This document shows positions 1,120 to 6,387 of a stretch of 6,491 nt of DNA, piece by piece. Below the pieces are notes generated by a model that ran no database searches, was not told the DNA's origin, and saw only the letters and a list, made by a program, of their open reading frames with translations. Every line of letters starts with the position of its first letter. Position 1 is the stretch's first letter. The DNA is from a virus (lineage: Duplodnaviria > Heunggongvirae > Uroviricota > Caudoviricetes): positions 1-6,491 of the IMG/VR virus record IMGVR_UViG_2660238215_000013, one strand, 5' to 3'. The translations under genes were made by a program, and so were the position numbers.

Positions 1120-1145
1120 ATAAAAAACCCGCTCAATGGCGGGTT
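1120..1145 (-). terminator. tR'-like intrinsic terminator of the late leader transcript (minus orientation)
   Basis: Minus strand AACCCGC-CATTGA-GCGGGTT followed by TTTTTTATT: 7-bp stem 1126-1132/1139-1145, U-tract from 1120-1125. Sits between the Q-like gene and the tRNAs, as tR' does in lambdoid phages. Confidence 0.6.
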
Positions 1146-1203
1146 CTGGTAAAGTTCATGCGTTTGGTTCGCCTCGCGATACAGCTTTGCGAAGCTTACC
1201 GGA

Positions 1204-1232
1204 ATTGAAGCAGTTTGTGGCTCATTTTGCAA
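1204..1232 (-). promoter_or_regulatory. Candidate late promoter PR' with presumed qut region: -35 TTGCAA (1227-1232), 17-bp spacer, -10 TTCAAT (1204-1209)
   Basis: Hexamers read directly on the minus strand, starting 8 nt after the Q-like stop codon (1240-1242). The predicted short transcript would end at the 1120-1145 terminator. Hexamer choice is by eye. Confidence 0.4.
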
Positions 1233-1239
1233 TGATTTT

Positions 1240-1776
1240 TTAAGCATAATCGAACGCTTCTCTCATAGGTGAATACAAAATGAACTCAGCAATACTCAAC
1301 CACTGATCAACACGGCGTCGGCATGTAATCAACGCCCACTCTGGGTACTGTTCGTTTAGTAGCTCGGCCATCCTTCTCTTACTCATCCCTCGTCCCACAT
1401 AACGCTGACTCAGGACATTAAGCAGCCCGGGATGATCCGCCAGTACTTCGCCAATAACCCTGTCGATTATTAATGCCTCTGCATCAGTACAATGCGCCAG
1501 CCAGCTCTTTTGCTTACCGTTAATCATATCCCGCAAAAAAGCCTCAAGTTCAGACTTGTTCAGACCTGCTTTTTTCATCCTCCGGAGCGCCTCGTTAATT
1601 GCCGTTTTTGTCAGCTTTTTAGAGGCCAACAACTGGTTGAACATATTCCCCGTCTTACCGCCGCCAATATACGACCAGCGCCCCCACATGCGCAGTTTTC
1701 CCTGAATCCAGACACTTTCCAGCGTGGTGAGACGAAGGTGCTCTCCGCTTTTTCCTGTGTTCGTTGGGTAAATCAT
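1240..1776 (-). CDS. Putative late-gene antiterminator Q (178 aa). Function assigned mainly by synteny (last gene before PR'/tR'/tRNAs, after ybcO-like gene), not by a verified family match
   Basis: ORF-track frame 1240..1896 trimmed to the ATG at 1776, which overlaps the upstream stop as ATGA (ATG 1776-1774, TGA 1775-1773). Product MIYPTNTGKSGEHLRLTTLESVWIQGKLRMWGRW...SPMREAFDYA. The 40 codons upstream of this ATG overlap the ybcO-like gene in another frame. Confidence 0.6.
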   Translation of the reverse strand: MIYPTNTGKSGEHLRLTTLESVWIQGKLRMWGRWSYIGGGKTGNMFNQLLASKKLTKTAINEALRRMKKAGLNKSELEAFLRDMINGKQKSWLAHCTDAEALIIDRVIGEVLADHPGLLNVLSQRYVGRGMSKRRMAELLNEQYPEWALITCRRRVDQWLSIAEFILYSPMREAFDYA

Positions 1777-2063
1777 AAATAACCGTCCTTTCTCCAGATC
1801 TCTTGTGTGCGAAAAACACCTTCTGCATGCATCAGGCGCAATTCTTCTTTGGTGTAATCGCTGGTTTTTACTCTCCCGTCGATTAAATCGTGGCATGAGT
1901 TACAGGCAATCGCCGCCTGCATATCGTGTGGTTTTGTCGCTGTTCCGCACGTCCCCGCCAGCCTGTAATGCGCCAGCACAGAAGTTTCGGGATTGTGATT
2001 GCAGTAGCCAGGAATTCTGACTGTGCACATCTGCCCCCGCGCCGCTTTACGTAAATCCACCAT
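1773..2063 (-). CDS. ybcO: YbcO-like DUF1364 protein (96 aa), a Cys/His-rich nin-region protein
   Basis: MVDLRKAARGQMCTVRIPGYCNHNPETSVLAHYRLAGTCGTATKPHDMQAAIACNSCHDLIDGR... matches the remembered DLP12 YbcO pattern (MADLRKAARG..C.VRIPG.CN.NPETSVLAH.RL.G.CGT.TKP.D..A.IAC..CHD.ID.R). Start ATG 2063-2061 overlaps the upstream stop as TAATG. Confidence 0.85.
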   Translation of the reverse strand: MVDLRKAARGQMCTVRIPGYCNHNPETSVLAHYRLAGTCGTATKPHDMQAAIACNSCHDLIDGRVKTSDYTKEELRLMHAEGVFRTQEIWRKDGYL

Positions 2064-2662
2064 TACGCAAACTCCAGTAACTGCGCGGCCACATTTTCGA
2101 CTTCCTCCGGAGAGGAAAATTTACGGAACAGGATCCAGTTCCACAGCACATTCAGTACAGATTTATAAACCTGCTGAAACTCGGTTTCGTCCATGTTCGC
2201 AAATGCGATAGATTTTGCCCTGCGCCCACGACTACCGTCCGGATAAAAATGTTCGGTGTAAAATCCGGCCTGAATGGTTACCCATTCGCGAAAAGCGTCA
2301 AAGGACTTGAGTAAGGCCGTATCCCGGGTTCTGCAAGTCGTAACGGTGTTAAGGTATTGCTCTGCGGCATCACTCAGGGCTGGCGTATGTTCCCGACCTA
2401 CTGATTCGCACAGGAAATCAACGAAACCGGACACCAGTTCTCGTTCGCGAGGCGTGATCGCCCCACCGTTCGGAGTCCAGTAATCGAATCCCAGTTGCAG
2501 GAGTTTGAAAAAACGCTTGTGGAACGCGTAGTTACGCACTCGCTTAAAGTCCGCGTGTATCCACTCACCTATTTTGATTTGATGCAAAAAATCGCAACTC
2601 TCCGGCGTCGCCGGGAGAAGTAATCCGGAAGAGGTTTGTTTGACCAGTTGTATATGCGCCAT
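2063..2662 (-). CDS. Conserved lambdoid nin-region protein, probably DUF1367 family (199 aa)
   Basis: ORF-track frame 2063..2674 begins at a TTG; the first ATG (2662-2660) has GGAG 6 nt upstream. Product MAHIQLVKQTSSGLLLPATPESCDFLHQIKIGEWIHADFKRVRNYAFHKRFFKLLQLGFDYWTP... Family assignment is from memory of prophage nin-region proteins and is unverified. Confidence 0.65.
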   Translation of the reverse strand: MAHIQLVKQTSSGLLLPATPESCDFLHQIKIGEWIHADFKRVRNYAFHKRFFKLLQLGFDYWTPNGGAITPRERELVSGFVDFLCESVGREHTPALSDAAEQYLNTVTTCRTRDTALLKSFDAFREWVTIQAGFYTEHFYPDGSRGRRAKSIAFANMDETEFQQVYKSVLNVLWNWILFRKFSSPEEVENVAAQLLEFA

Positions 2663-2721
2663 TGCTGTCTCCAATGGCGCTGTAGGTTGCCAGTTGTTCA
2701 GGCTGGCTTACGAATTATAAC

Positions 2722-3088: not shown

Positions 3089-3481
3089 TTACATACTCTC
3101 AATGTCATTTTTTAGTGAGTGCTTGTGTAACTCCATGGAGTAATCAACATCACGAAGAGTTTTTTCAATCTGCTTGCTTCTCAGGGTGGCAAGCGCATTA
3201 TCAATTGACACTTTTTCTTCATCTGAAGCATCAGCTCTCATTTTCGTAAGAGTCTTACGAGCCCTTGCCACATCCACCTTGAAACGTACGTCCTCTATGC
3301 TAGGTACGTTAACAAACGTAAGAAGTAGCAAAAAGAAGTGAGCAATAACAACAGCAACCCCAGGGAGAAATGCGTTGATATCAGCAGGTAACCCAATATA
3401 TGCGCTAGCCTTGACCAATAGGTAATTTGCCACCGGTGTGCACCACGCTTGGCTTGCAACATACTTAGATTGTTGAATCAT
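3089..3481 (-). CDS. Gene C of the candidate cassette: 130-aa predicted membrane protein, one clear TM segment (FLPGVAVVIAHFFLLLLTFVNV) and a charged, probably helical C-terminal tail. No family recognised
   Basis: ORF track 3089..3481. ATG 3481-3479 overlaps the stop of gene B as ATGA, with GAGG 6 nt upstream. Low GC like A and B. Confidence 0.7.
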   Translation of the reverse strand: MIQQSKYVASQAWCTPVANYLLVKASAYIGLPADINAFLPGVAVVIAHFFLLLLTFVNVPSIEDVRFKVDVARARKTLTKMRADASDEEKVSIDNALATLRSKQIEKTLRDVDYSMELHKHSLKNDIESM

Positions 3482-3717
3482 GAAGTGCCTCGCGTTAAAT
3501 CACGCTGAACCTCACTCAACGTGGACGCGAGCTCACGTGCATCCTTTGCATCCAACTGAACTTCGCAATAATGCCTAACTCCACATCGATCTATATAAGT
3601 AAATTTGAGTGTCTTACTTGGTTTAAGCCAAACCAAAAAATGATATACAGCAAAACGAGCCAACATAAAGGCGGCAACAAAAACCGTAATCATCAACATG
3701 ACACTTAAATAAGGCAT
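3478..3717 (-). CDS. Gene B of the candidate cassette: 79-aa small membrane protein, N-terminal TM helix (residues ~3-30) then a ~50-aa soluble tail with a Cys pair (DRCGVRHYC). No family recognised
   Basis: ORF track 3478..3717. Start is 8 nt after the stop of gene A (TAG 3728-3726) with AGGT 6 nt upstream. Stop overlaps the start of C. Confidence 0.7.
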   Translation of the reverse strand: MPYLSVMLMITVFVAAFMLARFAVYHFLVWLKPSKTLKFTYIDRCGVRHYCEVQLDAKDARELASTLSEVQRDLTRGTS

Positions 3718-3725
3718 ATTATTAC

Positions 3726-4595
3726 CTATACGATTCGACGTTCAGCTGCGGCGCGATGCCGTACAACCTGCGTGATAATGTATGCTGGATTCCCCAATAC
3801 ACCATTAGTTTCTTTGACTCTTTTTGTCACATTCACTACAAAAAGATCATCTTTACTGAATGACGCTTCGTTTAAATTTACTCGCTCAAGAAAACCAGCA
3901 TCCGCCATCTTAACCTTTACATCCTCGCCGTCTGGCAATACCATCCTCCAATCTGTATCGGAAGTAAAGCTCAGCTTAGAAAACTTGACGTTTAAGGTCA
4001 ATGAGTCTTCATGTGTATGTTGTACAACCGTATTATTCACTTTTTTAAAAGAAACAGATTGCTCTTGCGAAATAGAGACAATCTCCTCCCCACTTGAGTT
4101 TTTTACTCTAAACGACGAGTTTTTTTCAGTTTGCAGAGGAGTGTGTACCAATTTACTCATTTCATTGCGGATCGTAGAGTTTGTAACGAGCTTTTGTACG
4201 TCATTTGAACACTCAAATCGCTCATTATCAACAACAAAAGTCGCTCGGTTATTGGCTTCATCTATAACAACCTCATGTGGCTTTCGCCCTCGCAACCATT
4301 CTACAACCCCAACCAAACTCCCAGCACTTGCGCCGGTGGCAACAGAAAGCCCCAAGAGTTGCAAAGTAGATAAACTACCCAAAACAGAGACAAGAACAGT
4401 AAAAGATCCTTCCTGAATTGCCTTAATACTAACCCTAGTTGTTGCAGTCTCACCGTGGATAATTTTCTCTGCATTATCAATCAAATTACTTAATGAAGAC
4501 AGAGCATCACCAAGCATTTTAGCATCGATCTCATTATTCGCATATGCATCCCCAGCATATGCAATCTCAAGCTCTGTTACCTGTTGGTCGGTCAT
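3726..4595 (-). CDS. Gene A of the candidate cassette: ~289-aa protein with soluble N-terminal ~60 aa, a ~35-residue hydrophobic segment (FTVLVSVLGSLSTLQLLGLSVATGASAGSLVGVV; one long TM or a TM hairpin), and a ~190-aa C-terminal domain. No family recognised
   Basis: ORF track gives 3726..4613. The ATG at 4595-4593 has GGAG 9 nt upstream, whereas the ATG at 4613 has only A/T upstream, so 4595 is preferred (4613 remains possible). 870-nt frame in low-GC DNA, coupled to B and C downstream. Confidence 0.75.
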   Translation of the reverse strand: MTDQQVTELEIAYAGDAYANNEIDAKMLGDALSSLSNLIDNAEKIIHGETATTRVSIKAIQEGSFTVLVSVLGSLSTLQLLGLSVATGASAGSLVGVVEWLRGRKPHEVVIDEANNRATFVVDNERFECSNDVQKLVTNSTIRNEMSKLVHTPLQTEKNSSFRVKNSSGEEIVSISQEQSVSFKKVNNTVVQHTHEDSLTLNVKFSKLSFTSDTDWRMVLPDGEDVKVKMADAGFLERVNLNEASFSKDDLFVVNVTKRVKETNGVLGNPAYIITQVVRHRAAAERRIV

Positions 4596-4714
4596 GAAGT
4601 TCAACTCCACCATAAAAAATATGCAAAATAATTAACAGTATTTTCACTTTATGGCGGGTGCGTTGAGGATGCCTGACACATCAGAGGTGGCGGGGGTTTA
4701 CCCCGCCTGGTCTC

Positions 4715-4870
4715 TTACTCCTCAGGTTCGTAAGCTGTGAAGACAGCGACCTCCGTCTGGCCGGTTCGGATTCGTACCTCGCAGAGGTCTTTCCTCGTTA
4801 CCAGTGCCGTCACTATGACGGTTAAACAGATGACGATCAGGGCGATTAACATCGCCTTTTGCTGCTTCAT
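4715..4870 (-). CDS. hokD: Hok-family type I toxin (51 aa), HokD/RelF-like
   Basis: MKQQKAMLIALIVICLTVIVTALVTRKDLCEVRIRTGQTEVAVFTAYEPEE: single TM plus the conserved Hok C-terminal motif. Matches my recollection of K-12 Qin HokD. AAGGAG 9 nt upstream of the ATG at 4870. The ORF-track entry 4715..4927 is the same frame extended 19 codons upstream. Confidence 0.85.
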   Translation of the reverse strand: MKQQKAMLIALIVICLTVIVTALVTRKDLCEVRIRTGQTEVAVFTAYEPEE

Positions 4871-4991
4871 AGCCTGCTTCTCCTTGCCTTTCGGCGCGTA
4901 AGAGGCTAACCTACATGTGCAAGTCATAGATATGGCCTCAGATTAATGTTAAGCGTCTTGCCGGACGCGTAATGTTAACTGGGGCTTTTCT

Positions 4992-5027
4992 CTATCTGCC
5001 GTTGGTGTTCATGCCCGAGGCAGATAG
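4992..5027. repeat. 9-bp inverted repeat (ctatctgcc ... ggcagatag) with 18-nt spacer in the hokD upstream leader region
   Basis: 4992-5000 is the exact reverse complement of 5019-5027. Could be a structured RNA element of a hok/sok-type leader. Confidence 0.6.
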
Positions 5028-5085
5028 CCTCAAGCACCCGCAGCAATTCTACTTAACTCTCGCTTTACCGCAAACCGTTTTTACC

Positions 5086-5107
5086 CGATATGGGAATTCC
5101 CATATCG
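5086..5107. repeat. Perfect 22-bp palindrome CGATATGGGAATTCCCATATCG centred on GAATTC
   Basis: Reverse complement equals itself. Lies 9 nt downstream of the 34-aa peptide stop and ~215 nt upstream of the hokD start. Candidate dimeric-regulator operator or a 9-bp-stem RNA hairpin in the hok leader. Confidence 0.9.
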
Positions 5108-5115
5108 TAATGAAT

Positions 5116-5220
5116 TCAGTTCCCTAGTCGATCCATCAAAAACACAACCAGGCAGTAAACGCCCACAACAGCAATAACAGCCAGCGCACCTTCCATTGCC
5201 AGTGAAATATCATCCGACAT
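5116..5220 (-). CDS. Small hydrophobic peptide ORF (34 aa), predicted single-TM peptide; not in the ORF track
   Basis: Hand translation: MSDDISLAMEGALAVIAVVGVYCLVVFLMDRLGN, stop TGA 5118-5116. AGGAGGG immediately upstream of the ATG (5220-5218). Confidence 0.45.
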   Translation of the reverse strand: MSDDISLAMEGALAVIAVVGVYCLVVFLMDRLGN

Positions 5221-5255
5221 ATTCCCTCCTTTGGTGTTAATCCCGGCGAACGTTT

Positions 5256-5339
5256 TTACCCCCACCGACAAATAACATATACTAAAAAAGCGATAGCCAT
5301 AGCAACGCCTGTAATTGCAAATGCTTCAGGCCAGTTCAT
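5256..5339 (-). CDS. Small hydrophobic peptide ORF (27 aa), predicted single-TM peptide; not in the ORF track
   Basis: Hand translation: MNWPEAFAITGVAMAIAFLVYVICRWG, stop TAA 5258-5256. ATG 5339-5337 overlaps the stop of the DUF551 gene as ATGA, with AGGAGG 7 nt upstream. Confidence 0.45.
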   Translation of the reverse strand: MNWPEAFAITGVAMAIAFLVYVICRWG

Positions 5340-5920
5340 TGGCGCACCTCCTGCGGCGGTTCTGGTAGCGGCATCCAGTCGGTTACATTGCGGCTCTGTG
5401 TTTCGAAAAATTCATCACCATCACGGACTACATCAAAAAACTCACCGTCTCGATATTGCGCATAAAGAACGAATGCGCCATCACATAAAATAATTACGTG
5501 CTGACAGTCATCCGGCATTCGCTCACTACAGCTTATCCAACCATCCAGAGTTACCGGATAGTTGGTTGACGTTTCCGAGATTTCCCGAAAATTATTGGTT
5601 GACGAACCCTTATTTTCCCGAAAGTTTCCAGCCTGAAGCATGGCGGCGCTGTCTGGCGGGGCAGCATATAGCGGCACGTATATTTCCGGTTCCTTATCAG
5701 CACCGGGTTGCTCTTCCAGTGAGAATGTCTTTCCGGTAAATCGATTCATATAAAGCACGGGCTCTGCTTCCAGCGAAGCCTGAGCAACAAGGGCCAGTGC
5801 TAAATCCAACTCAATTGCCTCGAGAGAATTTTTGAATGCTGTCTGTTTTACTGCAAATTTCATCGCCTTTACATTTTCACTAACATGACTGATTAACTGC
5901 TCTTTTGTAAAAGTGGTCAT
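5336..5920 (-). CDS. Prophage protein with C-terminal DUF551-like domain (194 aa)
   Basis: ORF-track frame 5336..5980 starts at a GTG; the internal ATG at 5920-5918 has AAGGAG 6 nt upstream. C-terminus ...DGWISCSERMPDDCQHVIILCDGAFVLYAQYRDGEFFDV...VTDWMPLPEPP fits the DUF551 pattern as I remember it. Confidence 0.7.
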   Translation of the reverse strand: MTTFTKEQLISHVSENVKAMKFAVKQTAFKNSLEAIELDLALALVAQASLEAEPVLYMNRFTGKTFSLEEQPGADKEPEIYVPLYAAPPDSAAMLQAGNFRENKGSSTNNFREISETSTNYPVTLDGWISCSERMPDDCQHVIILCDGAFVLYAQYRDGEFFDVVRDGDEFFETQSRNVTDWMPLPEPPQEVRQ

Positions 5921-5976
5921 CTCATTCTCCTTTGATGCGAATGCCAGCGACAATTGAAGCCTGATAGCTAATTCAC

Positions 5977-6372
5977 TCACAGTACCGCCTCCTGAAAATT
6001 GCCCTGATAGAACGCCAGTACACGCAGCATAACTTCACTCTTCCGGCACTCGCCACAGATTATGTTCTGTTGTCTGTCGTAGCGGCGTATTTCTCCGTCT
6101 GGTAACTTTCGAATCAATGTCTGGTCGGTTGTTTTCTCCGCTGCCTTACGCCATACGCGATACACCTGTTCTGATGTAAAAACACCGTATTTACCGGGCA
6201 TGTATAAATCGCCACAAGCCAGTACATCCACAAGGCAACGTCTGACTGAATGCCAGCCTGCTCCCGTCGCTCTCTCCAGTTGTGATATCGTCATGCGTTC
6301 ATTTTTGCGTACCAGCCCGATAATTCGGGCCTTCAGTTCTTCACGCTGTTCGTGTGTAAAAGGTTTCGCCAT
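5977..6372 (-). CDS. Hypothetical prophage early-region protein (131 aa) with a probable helix-turn-helix segment (RMTISQLERATGAGWHSVRRCLVDV)
   Basis: ORF-track frame 5977..6387 trimmed to the ATG at 6372-6370, which has GGAGG 5 nt upstream. The stop overlaps the GTG of the next frame (GTGA). Confidence 0.65.
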   Translation of the reverse strand: MAKPFTHEQREELKARIIGLVRKNERMTISQLERATGAGWHSVRRCLVDVLACGDLYMPGKYGVFTSEQVYRVWRKAAEKTTDQTLIRKLPDGEIRRYDRQQNIICGECRKSEVMLRVLAFYQGNFQEAVL

Positions 6373-6387
6373 AAGCGCCTCCGGCAA

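Follow-up and report, generated by a model that had tools for sequence, protein, structure and literature searches.

Genes and features around the palindrome

The window (the whole stretch of viral DNA analysed here, 6,491 nucleotides) carries on its minus strand two small peptide genes and a hok/sok region, the latter homologous to hokW/sokW of 933W (Table 1). Between them lies a 22-bp sequence, CGATATGGGAATTCCCATATCG, that is identical to its own reverse complement (an arm-swapped variant that is still palindromic would be, for example, CGATGCGGGAATTCCCGCATCG) and that would read D-M-G-I-P-I-S in frame 2 of the plus strand. The palindrome begins 8 nt past the stop codon (5118-5116, minus strand) of the 34-amino-acid peptide gene, and the hok leader follows downstream, such that the palindrome is hok-upstream. 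An earlier, sequence-only reading had described this placement and had judged perfect self-complementarity over 22 bp to be improbable by chance, and both observations stand: perfect arms of at least 11 nt are expected 0.0015 times in 6,491 bases of the window's composition, and none of 300 shuffles contained 11-nt arms (the shuffle maximum, 10 nt, was seen once).

Table 1. Features at and near the palindrome, in window coordinates
Feature	Position	Strand	Evidence or remarks
Perfect 22-bp palindrome	5086..5107	.	Orphan copy of a KilA-N/BstA-family intragenic dyad element
KilA-N/BstA-family gene relic	5083..5122	+	Comprises the palindrome, 3 nt before it and 11-15 nt after it, with stop codons
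hok mRNA leader and sok antisense region	4865..5039	-	Rfam RF01794, 108 bits, model positions 1-157
mok/hok frame (Hok/Gef toxin)	4715..4927	-	Pfam PF01848, E 2.9e-23; hokD in the identical RefSeq locus
Putative hok promoter	5046..5073	-	-35 TTGCGG 5073-5068, 16-nt spacer, -10 TAGAAT 5051-5046
34-amino-acid membrane peptide gene (MSDDISLAMEGALAVIAVVGVYCLVVFLMDRLGN)	5116..5220	-	105-nt CDS in RefSeq NZ_CP027544.1 (identical locus)
27-amino-acid peptide gene (MNWPEAF...CRWG)	5256..5339	-	Window 5260-5339 = L265 4753-4832 (blastn)
11-nt direct repeat GGGTAAAAACG, copy A	5076..5086	-	Copy B at 5251-5261
DUF977 protein ('HTH-like' open reading frame)	5977-6387		

The hok 5' end was set at the start of the Rfam model and the promoter elements were read off the sequence; a promoter scan left this putative promoter unscored, its -35 element matching at only 3 of 6 positions. 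If transcription starts near 5039 (+1), about -47 to -68 of the hok promoter would be taken up by the palindrome. Such a place, just upstream of the putative -35, would suit an activator or a divergent operator, and the palindrome is retained in four different hok-upstream contexts. We nevertheless regard it as very improbable that a prophage regulator, the DUF977 protein or another, controls hok or the peptide genes from this site. The upstream HTH-like protein that had been put forward as the binder is a DUF977 protein. Among 53 informative hok-type loci with the palindrome, only 27 encode a homologue of it within 2.5 kb; loci from other phyla never do, and outside the enterobacteria the palindrome is never accompanied by one. 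Moreover, 933W-type hok loci work without the palindrome, the window holds neither a second copy nor a further half-site (CGATATGGGAA, even with two mismatches allowed), and the adjacency to hok is accounted for by descent, as described below.

The palindrome is an immediate neighbour of the hok/sok cis elements (fbi, tac, sokT and the mok frame), 47-68 nt upstream of the presumed hok mRNA start, but it lies outside the RF01794 match, which ends at 5039, and neither 933W hokW nor most chromosomal hok loci have it. The leader is a neighbour outside the palindrome element, and the palindrome is not needed for the known hok/sok RNA mechanism. A terminating or processing hairpin, also suggested from the sequence, is unsupported: neither strand has a U-tract or T-run after the palindrome (the absence had been noted at the outset), a terminator scan made no call at the site, and the sequence proves to reside inside coding regions, with no G-U preference and a symmetric centre (see below). 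The palindrome is neither an operator of DUF977 nor an intrinsic terminator, and it does not belong to the RNA machinery of hok/sok.

The palindrome is a remnant of a KilA-N/BstA-family gene

The window is collinear, in the same orientation, with Escherichia coli phage vB_EcoS-613R10 (ON470590; L265 in our numbering): both contain the Q region, hok/sok (Rfam match at 3410-3580 in L265), a KilA-N gene or its relic, an MxWPEAF peptide gene and downstream genes. In L265 the annotated KilA-N gene (3935-4708; KilA-N/BstA-type protein URE76544.1) is intact and contains the palindrome at 4108-4129, some 170 nt into its sequence. Alignment by blastn matches window 5083-5118 to L265 4105-4140 (88.9% over 36 nt, with collinear matches on either side), and outside the 22-mer 10 of the 14 bases are identical. 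Stop codons interrupt the bases downstream of the palindrome in the relic (TCG TAA TGA ATT CAG). Relic and intact gene are both oriented antisense to the phage early operon, and in vB_EcoS-613R10 the 27-amino-acid peptide gene is found beyond the intact gene. The last codon and stop of the 34-amino-acid peptide gene fall within the relic. Copies of GGGTAAAAACG flank the relic together with this peptide gene, and precisely that segment is absent from 933W-type hok loci; we infer a deletion between the repeats.

Continuation in register past the palindrome is seen in three relic types. PPompW is common with the window up to 5122 and divergent thereafter, and downstream of its palindrome 11 of 14 bases match KilA-N variants (a manual comparison rather than tool output); the relics in L016 and L105 stay in register with the KilA-N gene for 20-22 nt, with 15 of 18 and 16 of 20 bases identical, respectively. 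By homology beyond the palindrome in register, and by synteny, the window palindrome is the remnant of a KilA-N/BstA gene of which deletion or replacement has left only about 36-40 nt, and it adjoins hok because it descends from a hok plus KilA-N gene pair.

The product of the intact gene matches Pfam KilA-N (E 4e-27) and, over its full length, PHROG 6287 'BstA abortive infection system' (E 2.7e-89), and its C-terminal half matches the PADLOC BstA model (E 3e-21). In intact relatives, therefore, the palindrome lies inside a gene called BstA by both PHROG 6287 and PADLOC, and this gene is missing from the window. A fold search with the BstA-type C-terminal domain returned no PDB match, whereas that with the modelled N-terminal domain identified Mbp1 and the PCG2-DNA complex (PDB 1mb1 and 4ux5). 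The palindrome codes for residues 58-65, which AlphaFold2 (pLDDT 92.8) predicts to form the end of helix 47-60, a G-I-P turn and the start of a short helix that precedes a beta-hairpin. The palindrome also occurs in KilA-N genes without the BstA C-terminal domain (two proteins), and its role may therefore exceed BstA immunity.

The palindrome is selected at the nucleotide level

Among contigs representing one genome per species, the exact 22-mer was found at 63 loci, with about 0.03 expected by chance; these are distributed over cyanobacteria, Bacteroidota, Bacillota, Chloroflexota, several Proteobacteria classes, Spirochaetes and others. At about 40 of the 63 the 22-mer sits within KilA-N open reading frames whose flanks have diverged. 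Saprospiraceae-type genes read it in another frame, where the same 22 nt encode R-Y-G-N-S-H-I rather than D-M-G-I-P-I-S. Origin as a laboratory linker with an EcoRI core was considered and dismissed, since many genes contain the sequence in frame and hundreds of complete genomes have it at a fixed locus.

The exact sequence is one case of a more general property of the family. Perfect arms of at least 8 nt occur at this site in 39 of 71 KilA-N genes drawn as an unbiased sample, as compared with 5 of 284 control windows and none of 71 shuffles. The arm sequences of these 39 genes differ and the position does not: the centre stays at -50 nt from the QGTW codons. The palindromes span 20-28 bp and almost always have CG steps near their ends, and the 22-mer of the window belongs to the commonest class at the G-I-P codon site, about 50 nt upstream of the QGTW codons. 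Pairing is found in 77.5% of cells, against 60% after shuffling and 30-46% when the partner is slid, and the covariation score (0.414 versus 0.162) was matched by none of 500 shuffles. Codon usage at the site is skewed correspondingly: GGA makes up 77% (21% elsewhere), ATT 84% (39% elsewhere) and, for Ser and Thr, NCG 83% (about 20% elsewhere). L261/L299 have a double compensatory change, at the cost of two altered amino acids. Covarying arms, palindrome-keeping codon choice and the difference in reading frame together identify an element at the level of DNA, selected as nucleotides and not via the protein.

Covariation between the arms is classically read as the mark of a helix, and a hairpin or cruciform predicts it; a protein-binding site requires in addition either co-evolving specificity or homogenization of the arms by template switching. 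The covariation would thus agree with an RNA hairpin (a 9-bp stem with an AAUU loop, formed from a transcript of either strand). Such a hairpin could stabilize or process the peptide transcript at its 3' end, protect the hok promoter against read-through or, in intact genes, regulate the KilA-N mRNA. The site lies 8 nt past a stop codon, the 76-nt region around the palindrome has a predicted fold of -22 kcal/mol (z-score -3.3) with the hairpin as its core, and the single mismatches common in E. coli phages either affect what would be the loop or change C1 to T, giving a G-U pair. Against this, besides the missing U-tract and terminator call, Rfam has no match to the palindrome, whether in the window or at four related loci, and the mismatches found in relatives are not biased towards sense-strand wobble pairs (17 G:T or T:G versus 24 A:C or C:A). 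The four central bases, which cannot pair in a hairpin, are also symmetric and are kept so by codon choice. RNase III substrates usually have longer stems than the 9-11 bp available here, and the orphan is transcribed from the opposite strand to the intact gene. We consider the RNA hairpin improbable; the lack of a G:T excess and the symmetric centre point to DNA, rather than sense-strand RNA, as the form on which selection would act.

Literature searches (with the sequence itself, and for KilA-N palindromes or inverted repeats, GGGAATTCCC in phage and anti-BstA) returned no description of the element, and only the BstA/aba paper was relevant. A second copy of a gene's own palindrome was not found within flanks of 5-14 kb, and a local regulon is therefore unsupported.

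Stand-alone copies

About one third of all exact copies stand alone, with the KilA-N flank absent, and within the fetched loci a KilA-N gene is almost never near them. A second palindrome variant behaves similarly: of its copies, 33 lie in a KilA-N gene and 17 stand alone. The orphan locus is present in at least 667 of 5,426 complete E. coli genomes, and the intact L265-type gene in 137. When relic loci were retrieved by their flanks, the 22-mer was intact in 118 of 120 and five adjacent positions were polymorphic, which is weak evidence of constraint because these E. coli loci are closely related; comparison of the two main relic lineages gave P of about 0.05-0.1, and four of five L016-type loci have an intact 22-mer.

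Small arrays of related palindromes were observed at four loci (L135, L055, L160 and L171), and the genes flanking the L135 array gave no Pfam match. A search of viral contigs for arrays with the GGGAATTCCC core returned 20 matches, mostly unrelated 13-nt tandem repeats at contig ends; since most of these arrays are not of the KilA-N type, 'decoy arrays' are rare. One copy of the palindrome (L145, L175) adjoins a tRNA-like T-arm, where no tRNA call was possible as the contigs begin 22 nt upstream.

The sequence-only reading had raised the prospect that the palindrome belongs to a widespread repeat family. It does range very widely across phyla, but as an element internal to genes that also has orphan copies, and not in the manner of REP sequences. 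The notion of a REP-like or miniature mobile palindromic repeat that inserts at many sites, including the inside of genes, draws on the roughly 30 unrelated stand-alone contexts of the exact 22-mer in many phyla, on the small arrays and on the copy beside the T-arm; we give it hardly any credence, less than any other explanation considered here. Palindrome-free KilA-N homologues are equally long at the site, which rejects an origin by insertion and means that the palindrome evolved in place. The element is single-copy in the window and at each locus, without family-typical flanks or target duplications, whereas a REP family is confined to one species, in which it has many copies. With terminators, REP and BIME it has in common that a stable short hairpin is possible and that the copy in the window is intergenic; it differs from them in the absence of a U-tract, in being single-copy, in lying within coding sequences across phyla and in being symmetric through its centre.

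The stand-alone copies could also be functionless. In this explanation the 22-mer is a neutral relic whose symmetry restores itself by hairpin-templated or strand-switch repair and that serves in mosaic phages as a recombination breakpoint or a small stretch of common homology, its flanks being exchanged while it stays. The abundance of copies without a KilA-N flank accords with this, as do several junctions: 933W-type hok homology stops at window 5083, many E. coli hok loci end at 5082-5086, the pairs L135/L179 and L434/L443 have one flank in common and differ in the other from the palindrome edge, and L410 joins the flanks of two relic types. Arm-to-arm copying would, in addition, yield both perfect symmetry and covariation. 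Self-correction, however, preserves symmetry and not sequence, and the sequence of the orphans has remained exactly that of the intact E. coli gene, with variation in the neighbouring bases. Among intact enterobacterial alleles there is no convincing discordance that would mark a recombination breakpoint at the palindrome, identity being equal upstream and downstream of it, bar one probable misalignment. A neutral relic also leaves unexplained why, across phyla, more than half of KilA-N genes have a palindrome at one codon position, maintained by biased synonymous codons. We judge neutrality to be unlikely, although less so than the RNA hairpin.

Comparison with aba and with binding sites inside the binder's own gene

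The aba element is a DNA element in the bstA locus, cognate to each BstA and active as DNA on a replicating element; aba-BTP1, 63 bp in length, straddles the start codon and is bounded by CCCGCC direct repeats (Owen et al. 2021, Cell Host Microbe, PMC8585504). The palindrome does not have this published architecture (63 bp, start codon, CCCGCC repeats): aba-BTP1 is without a dyad, whereas the KilA-N palindromes are dyads that lie about 170 nt into the gene, in KilA-N codons. BstA-BTP1 itself has only the C-terminal domain in common with the KilA-N family described here, and has another N-terminal domain and no mid-gene palindrome. Both elements are nevertheless short stretches of DNA inseparable from the gene of a prophage KilA-N(-like) abortive-infection protein, and the cognate specificity of aba would, by analogy, fit the diverse arm sequences of the KilA-N palindromes. 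Any link between the palindrome and aba is by analogy only.

Sites within the coding sequence of their own binder are known from other systems, such as parS within parB/spo0J and the lambda ori iterons within gene O. Like the KilA-N palindrome, these are dyad DNA sites tolerated by the encoded peptide, and parS is conserved across phyla; they have one consensus, however, whereas the arms of the KilA-N palindrome co-vary at a single site, with no partition or replication role indicated. The APSES domains of Mbp1 and PCG2 bind short CG-containing sites, some of them palindromic (ACGCGT). The KilA-N palindrome is far longer than this MCB box, and the segment that it encodes is an insertion relative to Mbp1. 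We know of no DNA target defined for any bacterial or phage KilA-N domain.

Proposed function

The most probable reading, in our assessment, is that the window palindrome is a gene relic of an element that serves as a dyad site for a KilA-N dimer, or as an aba-like self mark, and that the orphan is now either inert or a decoy. As duplex DNA, the palindrome would be bound by a dimer of the KilA-N domain (an APSES-like winged helix) that it partly encodes. By analogy with aba, it might act as a mark of 'self' inside the gene, sparing a BstA-encoding prophage the effects of its own abortive-infection protein. The orphan in the window, with no cognate gene adjacent, would then be an inert relic, or would become a decoy upon prophage replication, titrating BstA-like proteins from co-resident prophages that bear the same palindrome. 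Of the operator originally envisaged for a dimeric HTH regulator, a dyad site for a dimeric DNA-binding protein thus survives as the best functional reading, and the candidate regulator does not.

A broader generalization, which we advance with considerable doubt, is that KilA-N domains carry their own recognition site in the codons of the helix-turn-wing, the two being inseparable and co-diversifying; that the site is a self-immunity tag of the BstA type; and that orphans, the copy in the window among them, are captured tags that phages keep as decoys against abortive infection by resident prophages.

Both for the mechanism of BstA with its silencing by aba and for the DNA target of KilA-N domains, the covarying palindrome offers a concrete 22-bp candidate. 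Even if the orphan is inert, it illustrates how a motif that looks like an operator between genes may turn out to be the fossil of a gene, it sets right the obvious assumption that the motif belongs to hok regulation, and it documents nucleotide-level constraint inside the gene of a widespread viral DNA-binding domain. If orphans do act as decoys, they would constitute a protein-free anti-defence strategy, frequent in E. coli prophages as judged from the genome counts above, in which 22 bp of DNA alone serve as the anti-defence device; this would explain the persistence of short perfect palindromes at the module junctions of lambdoid phages.

A perfect palindrome in the nin/Q region

The 22-bp site between the small-peptide genes and the hok leader, CGATATGGGAATTCCCATATCG, is identical to its own reverse complement, and such symmetry is unlikely by chance, as the sequence-only reading had held: arms of 11 nt or more are expected 0.0015 times per sequence of the window's size and composition, and 0 of 300 shuffles of the window gave them. 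Further copies of the half-site, for which that reading had proposed a search, are absent from the rest of the window even with two mismatches tolerated. Every gene near the palindrome lies on the minus strand, as part of the nin/Q region of a lambdoid prophage; the remaining neighbors are the DUF1367 and YbcO genes, a Q-like antiterminator gene and three tRNA genes. The putative hok promoter, which a simple promoter scan left unscored, would leave the palindrome roughly between -47 and -68. The U-tract already noted as missing is indeed absent (no T-run follows the palindrome), and a scan found no terminator-like site there, which speaks against the terminator that had been offered as one function.

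Features of the window and of the matching locus (L265) of Escherichia coli phage vB_EcoS-613R10 (ON470590)
Feature	Window	Strand	L265	Remarks
AgvB anti-GcvB sRNA	453-512	plus		Rfam, 59.9 bits; directly adjoins STnc100, likewise downstream of tRNA cluster
STnc100 sRNA	513-721	minus		Rfam, 170 bits; downstream of prophage tRNA cluster
Prophage tRNAs Arg-tct, Arg-tcg, Met-cat	831-1082	minus		between Q-like gene and late region
Q region	1124-2705		462-2045	blastn
hok/sok match	4689-5051		3236-3592	blastn; Rfam confirms hok/sok in L265
mok/hok	4927-4715	minus		
hok/sok leader	5039-4865	minus		Rfam RF01794, 108 bits
Putative hok -10, TAGAAT	5051-5046			
Putative hok -35, TTGCGG	5073-5068			
Palindrome segment	5083-5118		4105-4140	blastn, 36 nt, 88.9%
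Palindrome	5086-5107	self-complementary	4108-4129	inside KilA-N gene in L265
Annotated KilA-N gene			3935-4708	strand opposite early operon, divergent from hok
34-aa peptide gene	5220-5116	minus		
11-nt direct repeat GGGTAAAAACG	5261-5251 and 5086-5076	minus		flanks relic and 34-aa gene
Peptide gene match	5260-5339		4753-4832	blastn
27-aa peptide gene	5339-5256	minus		
DUF551 gene	5336-5980	minus		
Tandem direct repeats in DUF551 gene	5562-5626			two of 32 nt, 75% identical, 33 nt apart (TTGGTTGACG...TTTCCCGAAA.TT)
DUF977 gene	5977-6387	minus		

Exact copies lie mainly in KilA-N genes

The exact 22-mer is confined neither to E. coli nor to hok. It occurs on at least 119 viral contigs and at 63 loci of a one-genome-per-species collection (chance expectation about 0.03), in taxa including Nostoc and other cyanobacteria, Saprospiraceae and other Bacteroidota, Bacillota, Dehalococcoidia, Rhizobiales, Alcaligenaceae, Nitrosospira, Brachyspira, Saccharibacteria, Xenorhabdus and Rouxiella. 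About 40 of the 63 genomic copies fall within ORFs recognized by a KilA-N profile, and Pfam PF04383 confirms the domain in representatives. In these genes the palindrome encodes D-M-G-I-P-I-S, preceded by '...DY.RLK.T.EFL.EL.' and followed by 'ELIQ..KGG...QGTWVHP', flanks that are conserved at the protein level only. Six KilA-N genes (Saprospiraceae, Aureispira, Haliscomenobacter) carry the same 22 nt at the equivalent domain position but translate them in a different frame, to R-Y-G-N-S-H-I; the conserved thing is therefore the nucleotides and not the peptide. A KilA-N gene on a MAG contig binned as a giant virus (L277, GVMAG-M-3300017991-11) shows inverted repeats there too (AAACGAGGTG-8 nt-CACCTCGTTT, at the corresponding site), and the feature may thus reach beyond bacterial viruses.

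The symmetry is maintained at the nucleotide level

Enterobacterial homologues, sampled through their C-terminal part only, carry the palindrome either unchanged or with a single substitution, which falls at one of the two central positions or is T20A or C1T; in one gene, CGATGCGGGAATTCCCGCATCG, two compensatory substitutions change two amino acids. Homologues further away lack the palindrome and are equally long at the site, which rules out its being an insertion in the KilA-N gene. In a second sample, KilA-N genes picked only by a DNA pattern for QGTWVHP (71 non-redundant genes), perfect inverted arms of at least 8 nt stand just upstream of this anchor in 39 of 71 genes, versus 5 of 284 control windows from the same genes and 0 of 71 shuffles. 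The center lies 50 nt before the anchor or is offset from there by multiples of three, and the sequences vary widely (for example, TACCGAAACCGGAATTCCGGTTTCGGTA, CCGATGTCGGAATTCCGACATCGG, CCGTTGCGGGAATTCCCGCAACGG, CGGAAACGGGATATCCCGTTTCCG, CGTTGTGCAAATTTGCACAACG and TTCGGCGGTGCTAATTAGCACCGCCGAA).

Aligned with MAFFT, the genes form the 12 proposed pairs in 77.5% of cells, compared with 60.3% for shuffled partners and 30-46% for slid partners; double-sided changes number 135 versus 50, and the covariation score is 0.414 versus 0.162, a value reached by 0 of 500 shuffles. Codon choice follows the same pattern: GGA is used for Gly in 33 of 43 genes (versus 21% in the rest of those genes), ATT for Ile in 36 of 43 (versus 39%) and NCG for Ser/Thr at +4 in 30 of 36 (versus about 20%), and the third base of the Pro codon tracks that of codon -2, indicating that synonymous sites take part in the symmetry. 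Among 120 homologous proteins, the residues two positions either side of G-I-P match complementarity (M/I-I, T-V, V-T, A-A). KilA-N genes almost certainly carry a covarying palindrome at this site that is kept as nucleotide sequence.

The stable RNA hairpin of the sequence-only reading is conceivable, the local RNA fold being at -22 kcal/mol (z = -3.3); no Rfam family matches the palindrome in the window or in four related loci. Imperfect copies have 17 G:T versus 24 A:C mismatches, and this lack of a G:T excess does not favor a sense-strand RNA helix, while the four central bases, the loop of any hairpin, are held symmetric by codon choice. Mismatch types and symmetric center together suggest either that a symmetric factor reads the site as duplex DNA or that one strand is copied onto the other.

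The window copy is probably a gene relic

By blastn the window is collinear with L265 (see table), and the matches go on further downstream. Relative to L265, about 510 nt are missing on the hok side of the palindrome; on the opposite side, now occupied by the 34-aa peptide gene, the loss is about 610 nt. The relic reads TCG TAA TGA ATT CAG versus TCG GAG TTA ATT CAA in the intact gene. Other contexts upstream of hok hold the same relic with flanks of differing length; downstream of the palindrome 11 of 14 bases match the KilA-N gene in the PPompW relic type, and the L016 and L105 types match in register at 15 of 18 and 16 of 20. From this collinearity and these in-register flanks we conclude that the window palindrome is very probably the fossil of a KilA-N/BstA gene. 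In the nin region of lambdoid phages (L265 3236-4708; window 4689-5122), the BstA-like KilA-N gene adjoins hok/sok and is transcribed divergently from it, the two making up a small toxin and defense islet antisense to the early operon.

The palindrome stands at a mosaic junction. In Stx phages of the 933W type, hok homology to the window ends at 5083 and the peptide gene directly adjoins the hok promoter with no palindrome between; across 4,251 E. coli genomes, most hok matches on the chromosome likewise stop at 5082-5086, and at least 667 E. coli genomes match the window's orphan locus in full. PPompW-type phages do have the palindrome, there perfect over 24 bp, and homology extends to 5122 before switching to an unrelated upstream gene. 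The segment between the two GGGTAAAAACG copies is exactly what 933W-type hok loci lack, and the 933W arrangement looks like a deletion by recombination between them.

The proposal of an operator for a dimeric regulator survives in that a dimeric DNA-binding protein is still the likeliest reader of the site. The protein named for that part, the HTH-like DUF977 product, is not the partner: of 53 loci with the palindrome just 27 also have it, and outside enterobacteria the two never occur together. The reader would be the KilA-N protein of the gene now gone from the window.

Stand-alone copies

Among 120 relic loci retrieved by flanks alone, the 22-mer is intact in 118, with a single change in the other two, and four of the five positions adjoining it are polymorphic. 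Between the main two relic lineages, 8 of 61 flank positions have changed versus 0 of 22 in the palindrome (P about 0.05). The intact L265-type gene is found in 137 of 5,426 complete E. coli genomes, versus at least 667 with the orphan locus; of the 63 genomic copies outside E. coli, 23 are not enclosed by a KilA-N ORF, and a second variant, CGATATCGGAATTCCGATATCG, lies inside KilA-N ORFs at 33 of 50 viral loci and stands alone at 17. The best explanation is selection for the bare site. The main rival is a recombination-prone palindrome, and the pattern fits either. Some CGATATCGGAATTCCGATATCG copies sit where two contigs have one flank in common and the other different, and of the five L016-type loci four are intact, the fifth having a central change and recombinant flanks. 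That the window orphan works as a decoy seems rather unlikely.

Several individual loci deserve description. Upstream of the hok promoter in L410 (IMGVR_UViG_2913112809_000002) is a recombinant relic, with an L016-type flank on the hok side and a PPompW-type flank on the other, joined at the palindrome with a central T13C change. The prophage contig L003 (IMGVR_UViG_2690316115_000011; 10.6 kb) has two copies: the common one-mismatch variant GGGGATTCCC in an intact KilA-N/BstA-like gene (4231-4992), and a perfect orphan upstream of hok at 10624. Small intergenic arrays of different KilA-N-type palindromes about 37-40 nt apart (for example, TCGTTGTGGGAATTCTCACAACGA, GTGAAACGGGAATTCCCGTTTCAC, TCGATATGGGAATTCCCATATCGA and TCGTTGCAGGAATTCCCGCAACGA) occur in L135 (2527-2705, an Alcaligenaceae MAG, where a gene for 806 aa that lacks Pfam hits lies downstream), L179, L055, L160, L171 and L180, and could be multi-site decoys or a regulatory cluster. 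In L012 (6840-6935) a direct repeat of about 30 nt lies on both sides of the palindrome (GCAACCAATGCGCGCA.AAATT.TAA..TTTTA.G), which may be iteron-like or may have arisen by duplication where an insertion took place. Positions 1-70 of L145 and L175 hold an exact copy, 22 nt into the contig, with a T-arm and acceptor end like those of a tRNA (GCGGGTTCGAGTCCCGCGGGCGGC) directly after it; the palindrome occupies the place of a long variable arm, and the contigs diverge past the tRNA-like end, as at an integration site. ARAGORN made no tRNA call in these sequences, which begin only 22 nt before the palindrome.

Relation to BstA and aba

PHROG 6287 ('BstA abortive infection system, replication inhibitor') covers the full length of the L265-type protein (E 2.7e-89), whose C-terminal half matches the PADLOC BstA model (E 3e-21). 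At E <= 1e-10 the family numbers 2,650 or more, with precomputed Pfam PF26567 and PF04383. In an AlphaFold2 model (46-sequence alignment, pLDDT 92.8), the N-terminal domain matches Mbp1 (1mb1) and the PCG2-DNA complex (4ux5), and the C-terminal domain has no match in a PDB fold search. The palindrome codes for residues 58-65, comprising the last part of helix 47-60, the G-I-P turn and the first part of a short helix that precedes a modeled beta-hairpin (68-71/80-83); in the weak Mbp1 alignment from a PDB sequence search these residues are an insertion. Judging from the fold match, the encoded segment would correspond to the helix-turn-wing region that touches DNA in APSES domains.

In the bstA locus a short DNA element, aba, spares the encoding prophage; it acts as DNA, must be carried on an element that replicates and is in each case specific to its cognate BstA (Owen et al. 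2021, PMC8585504). The aba mapped there is that of prophage BTP1 (63 bp that include the start codon and have CCCGCC repeats at their ends), those of the E. coli and Klebsiella homologues being unmapped in that study (PMC8585504). BstA-BTP1 has only the C-terminal domain in common with the present family (32% identity), and its gene has no mid-gene palindrome. Given this architecture and this absence, the palindrome is not the published aba; we found no later paper on the palindrome or an aba equivalent in the literature searched. In true KilA-N-type members the palindrome is the obvious candidate for an aba-equivalent element. It is present too in KilA-N genes with other C-terminal parts, so that the common denominator is the KilA-N domain, and it is quite possible, if still short of probable, that the palindrome is the DNA site of a KilA-N dimer with an aba-like role.
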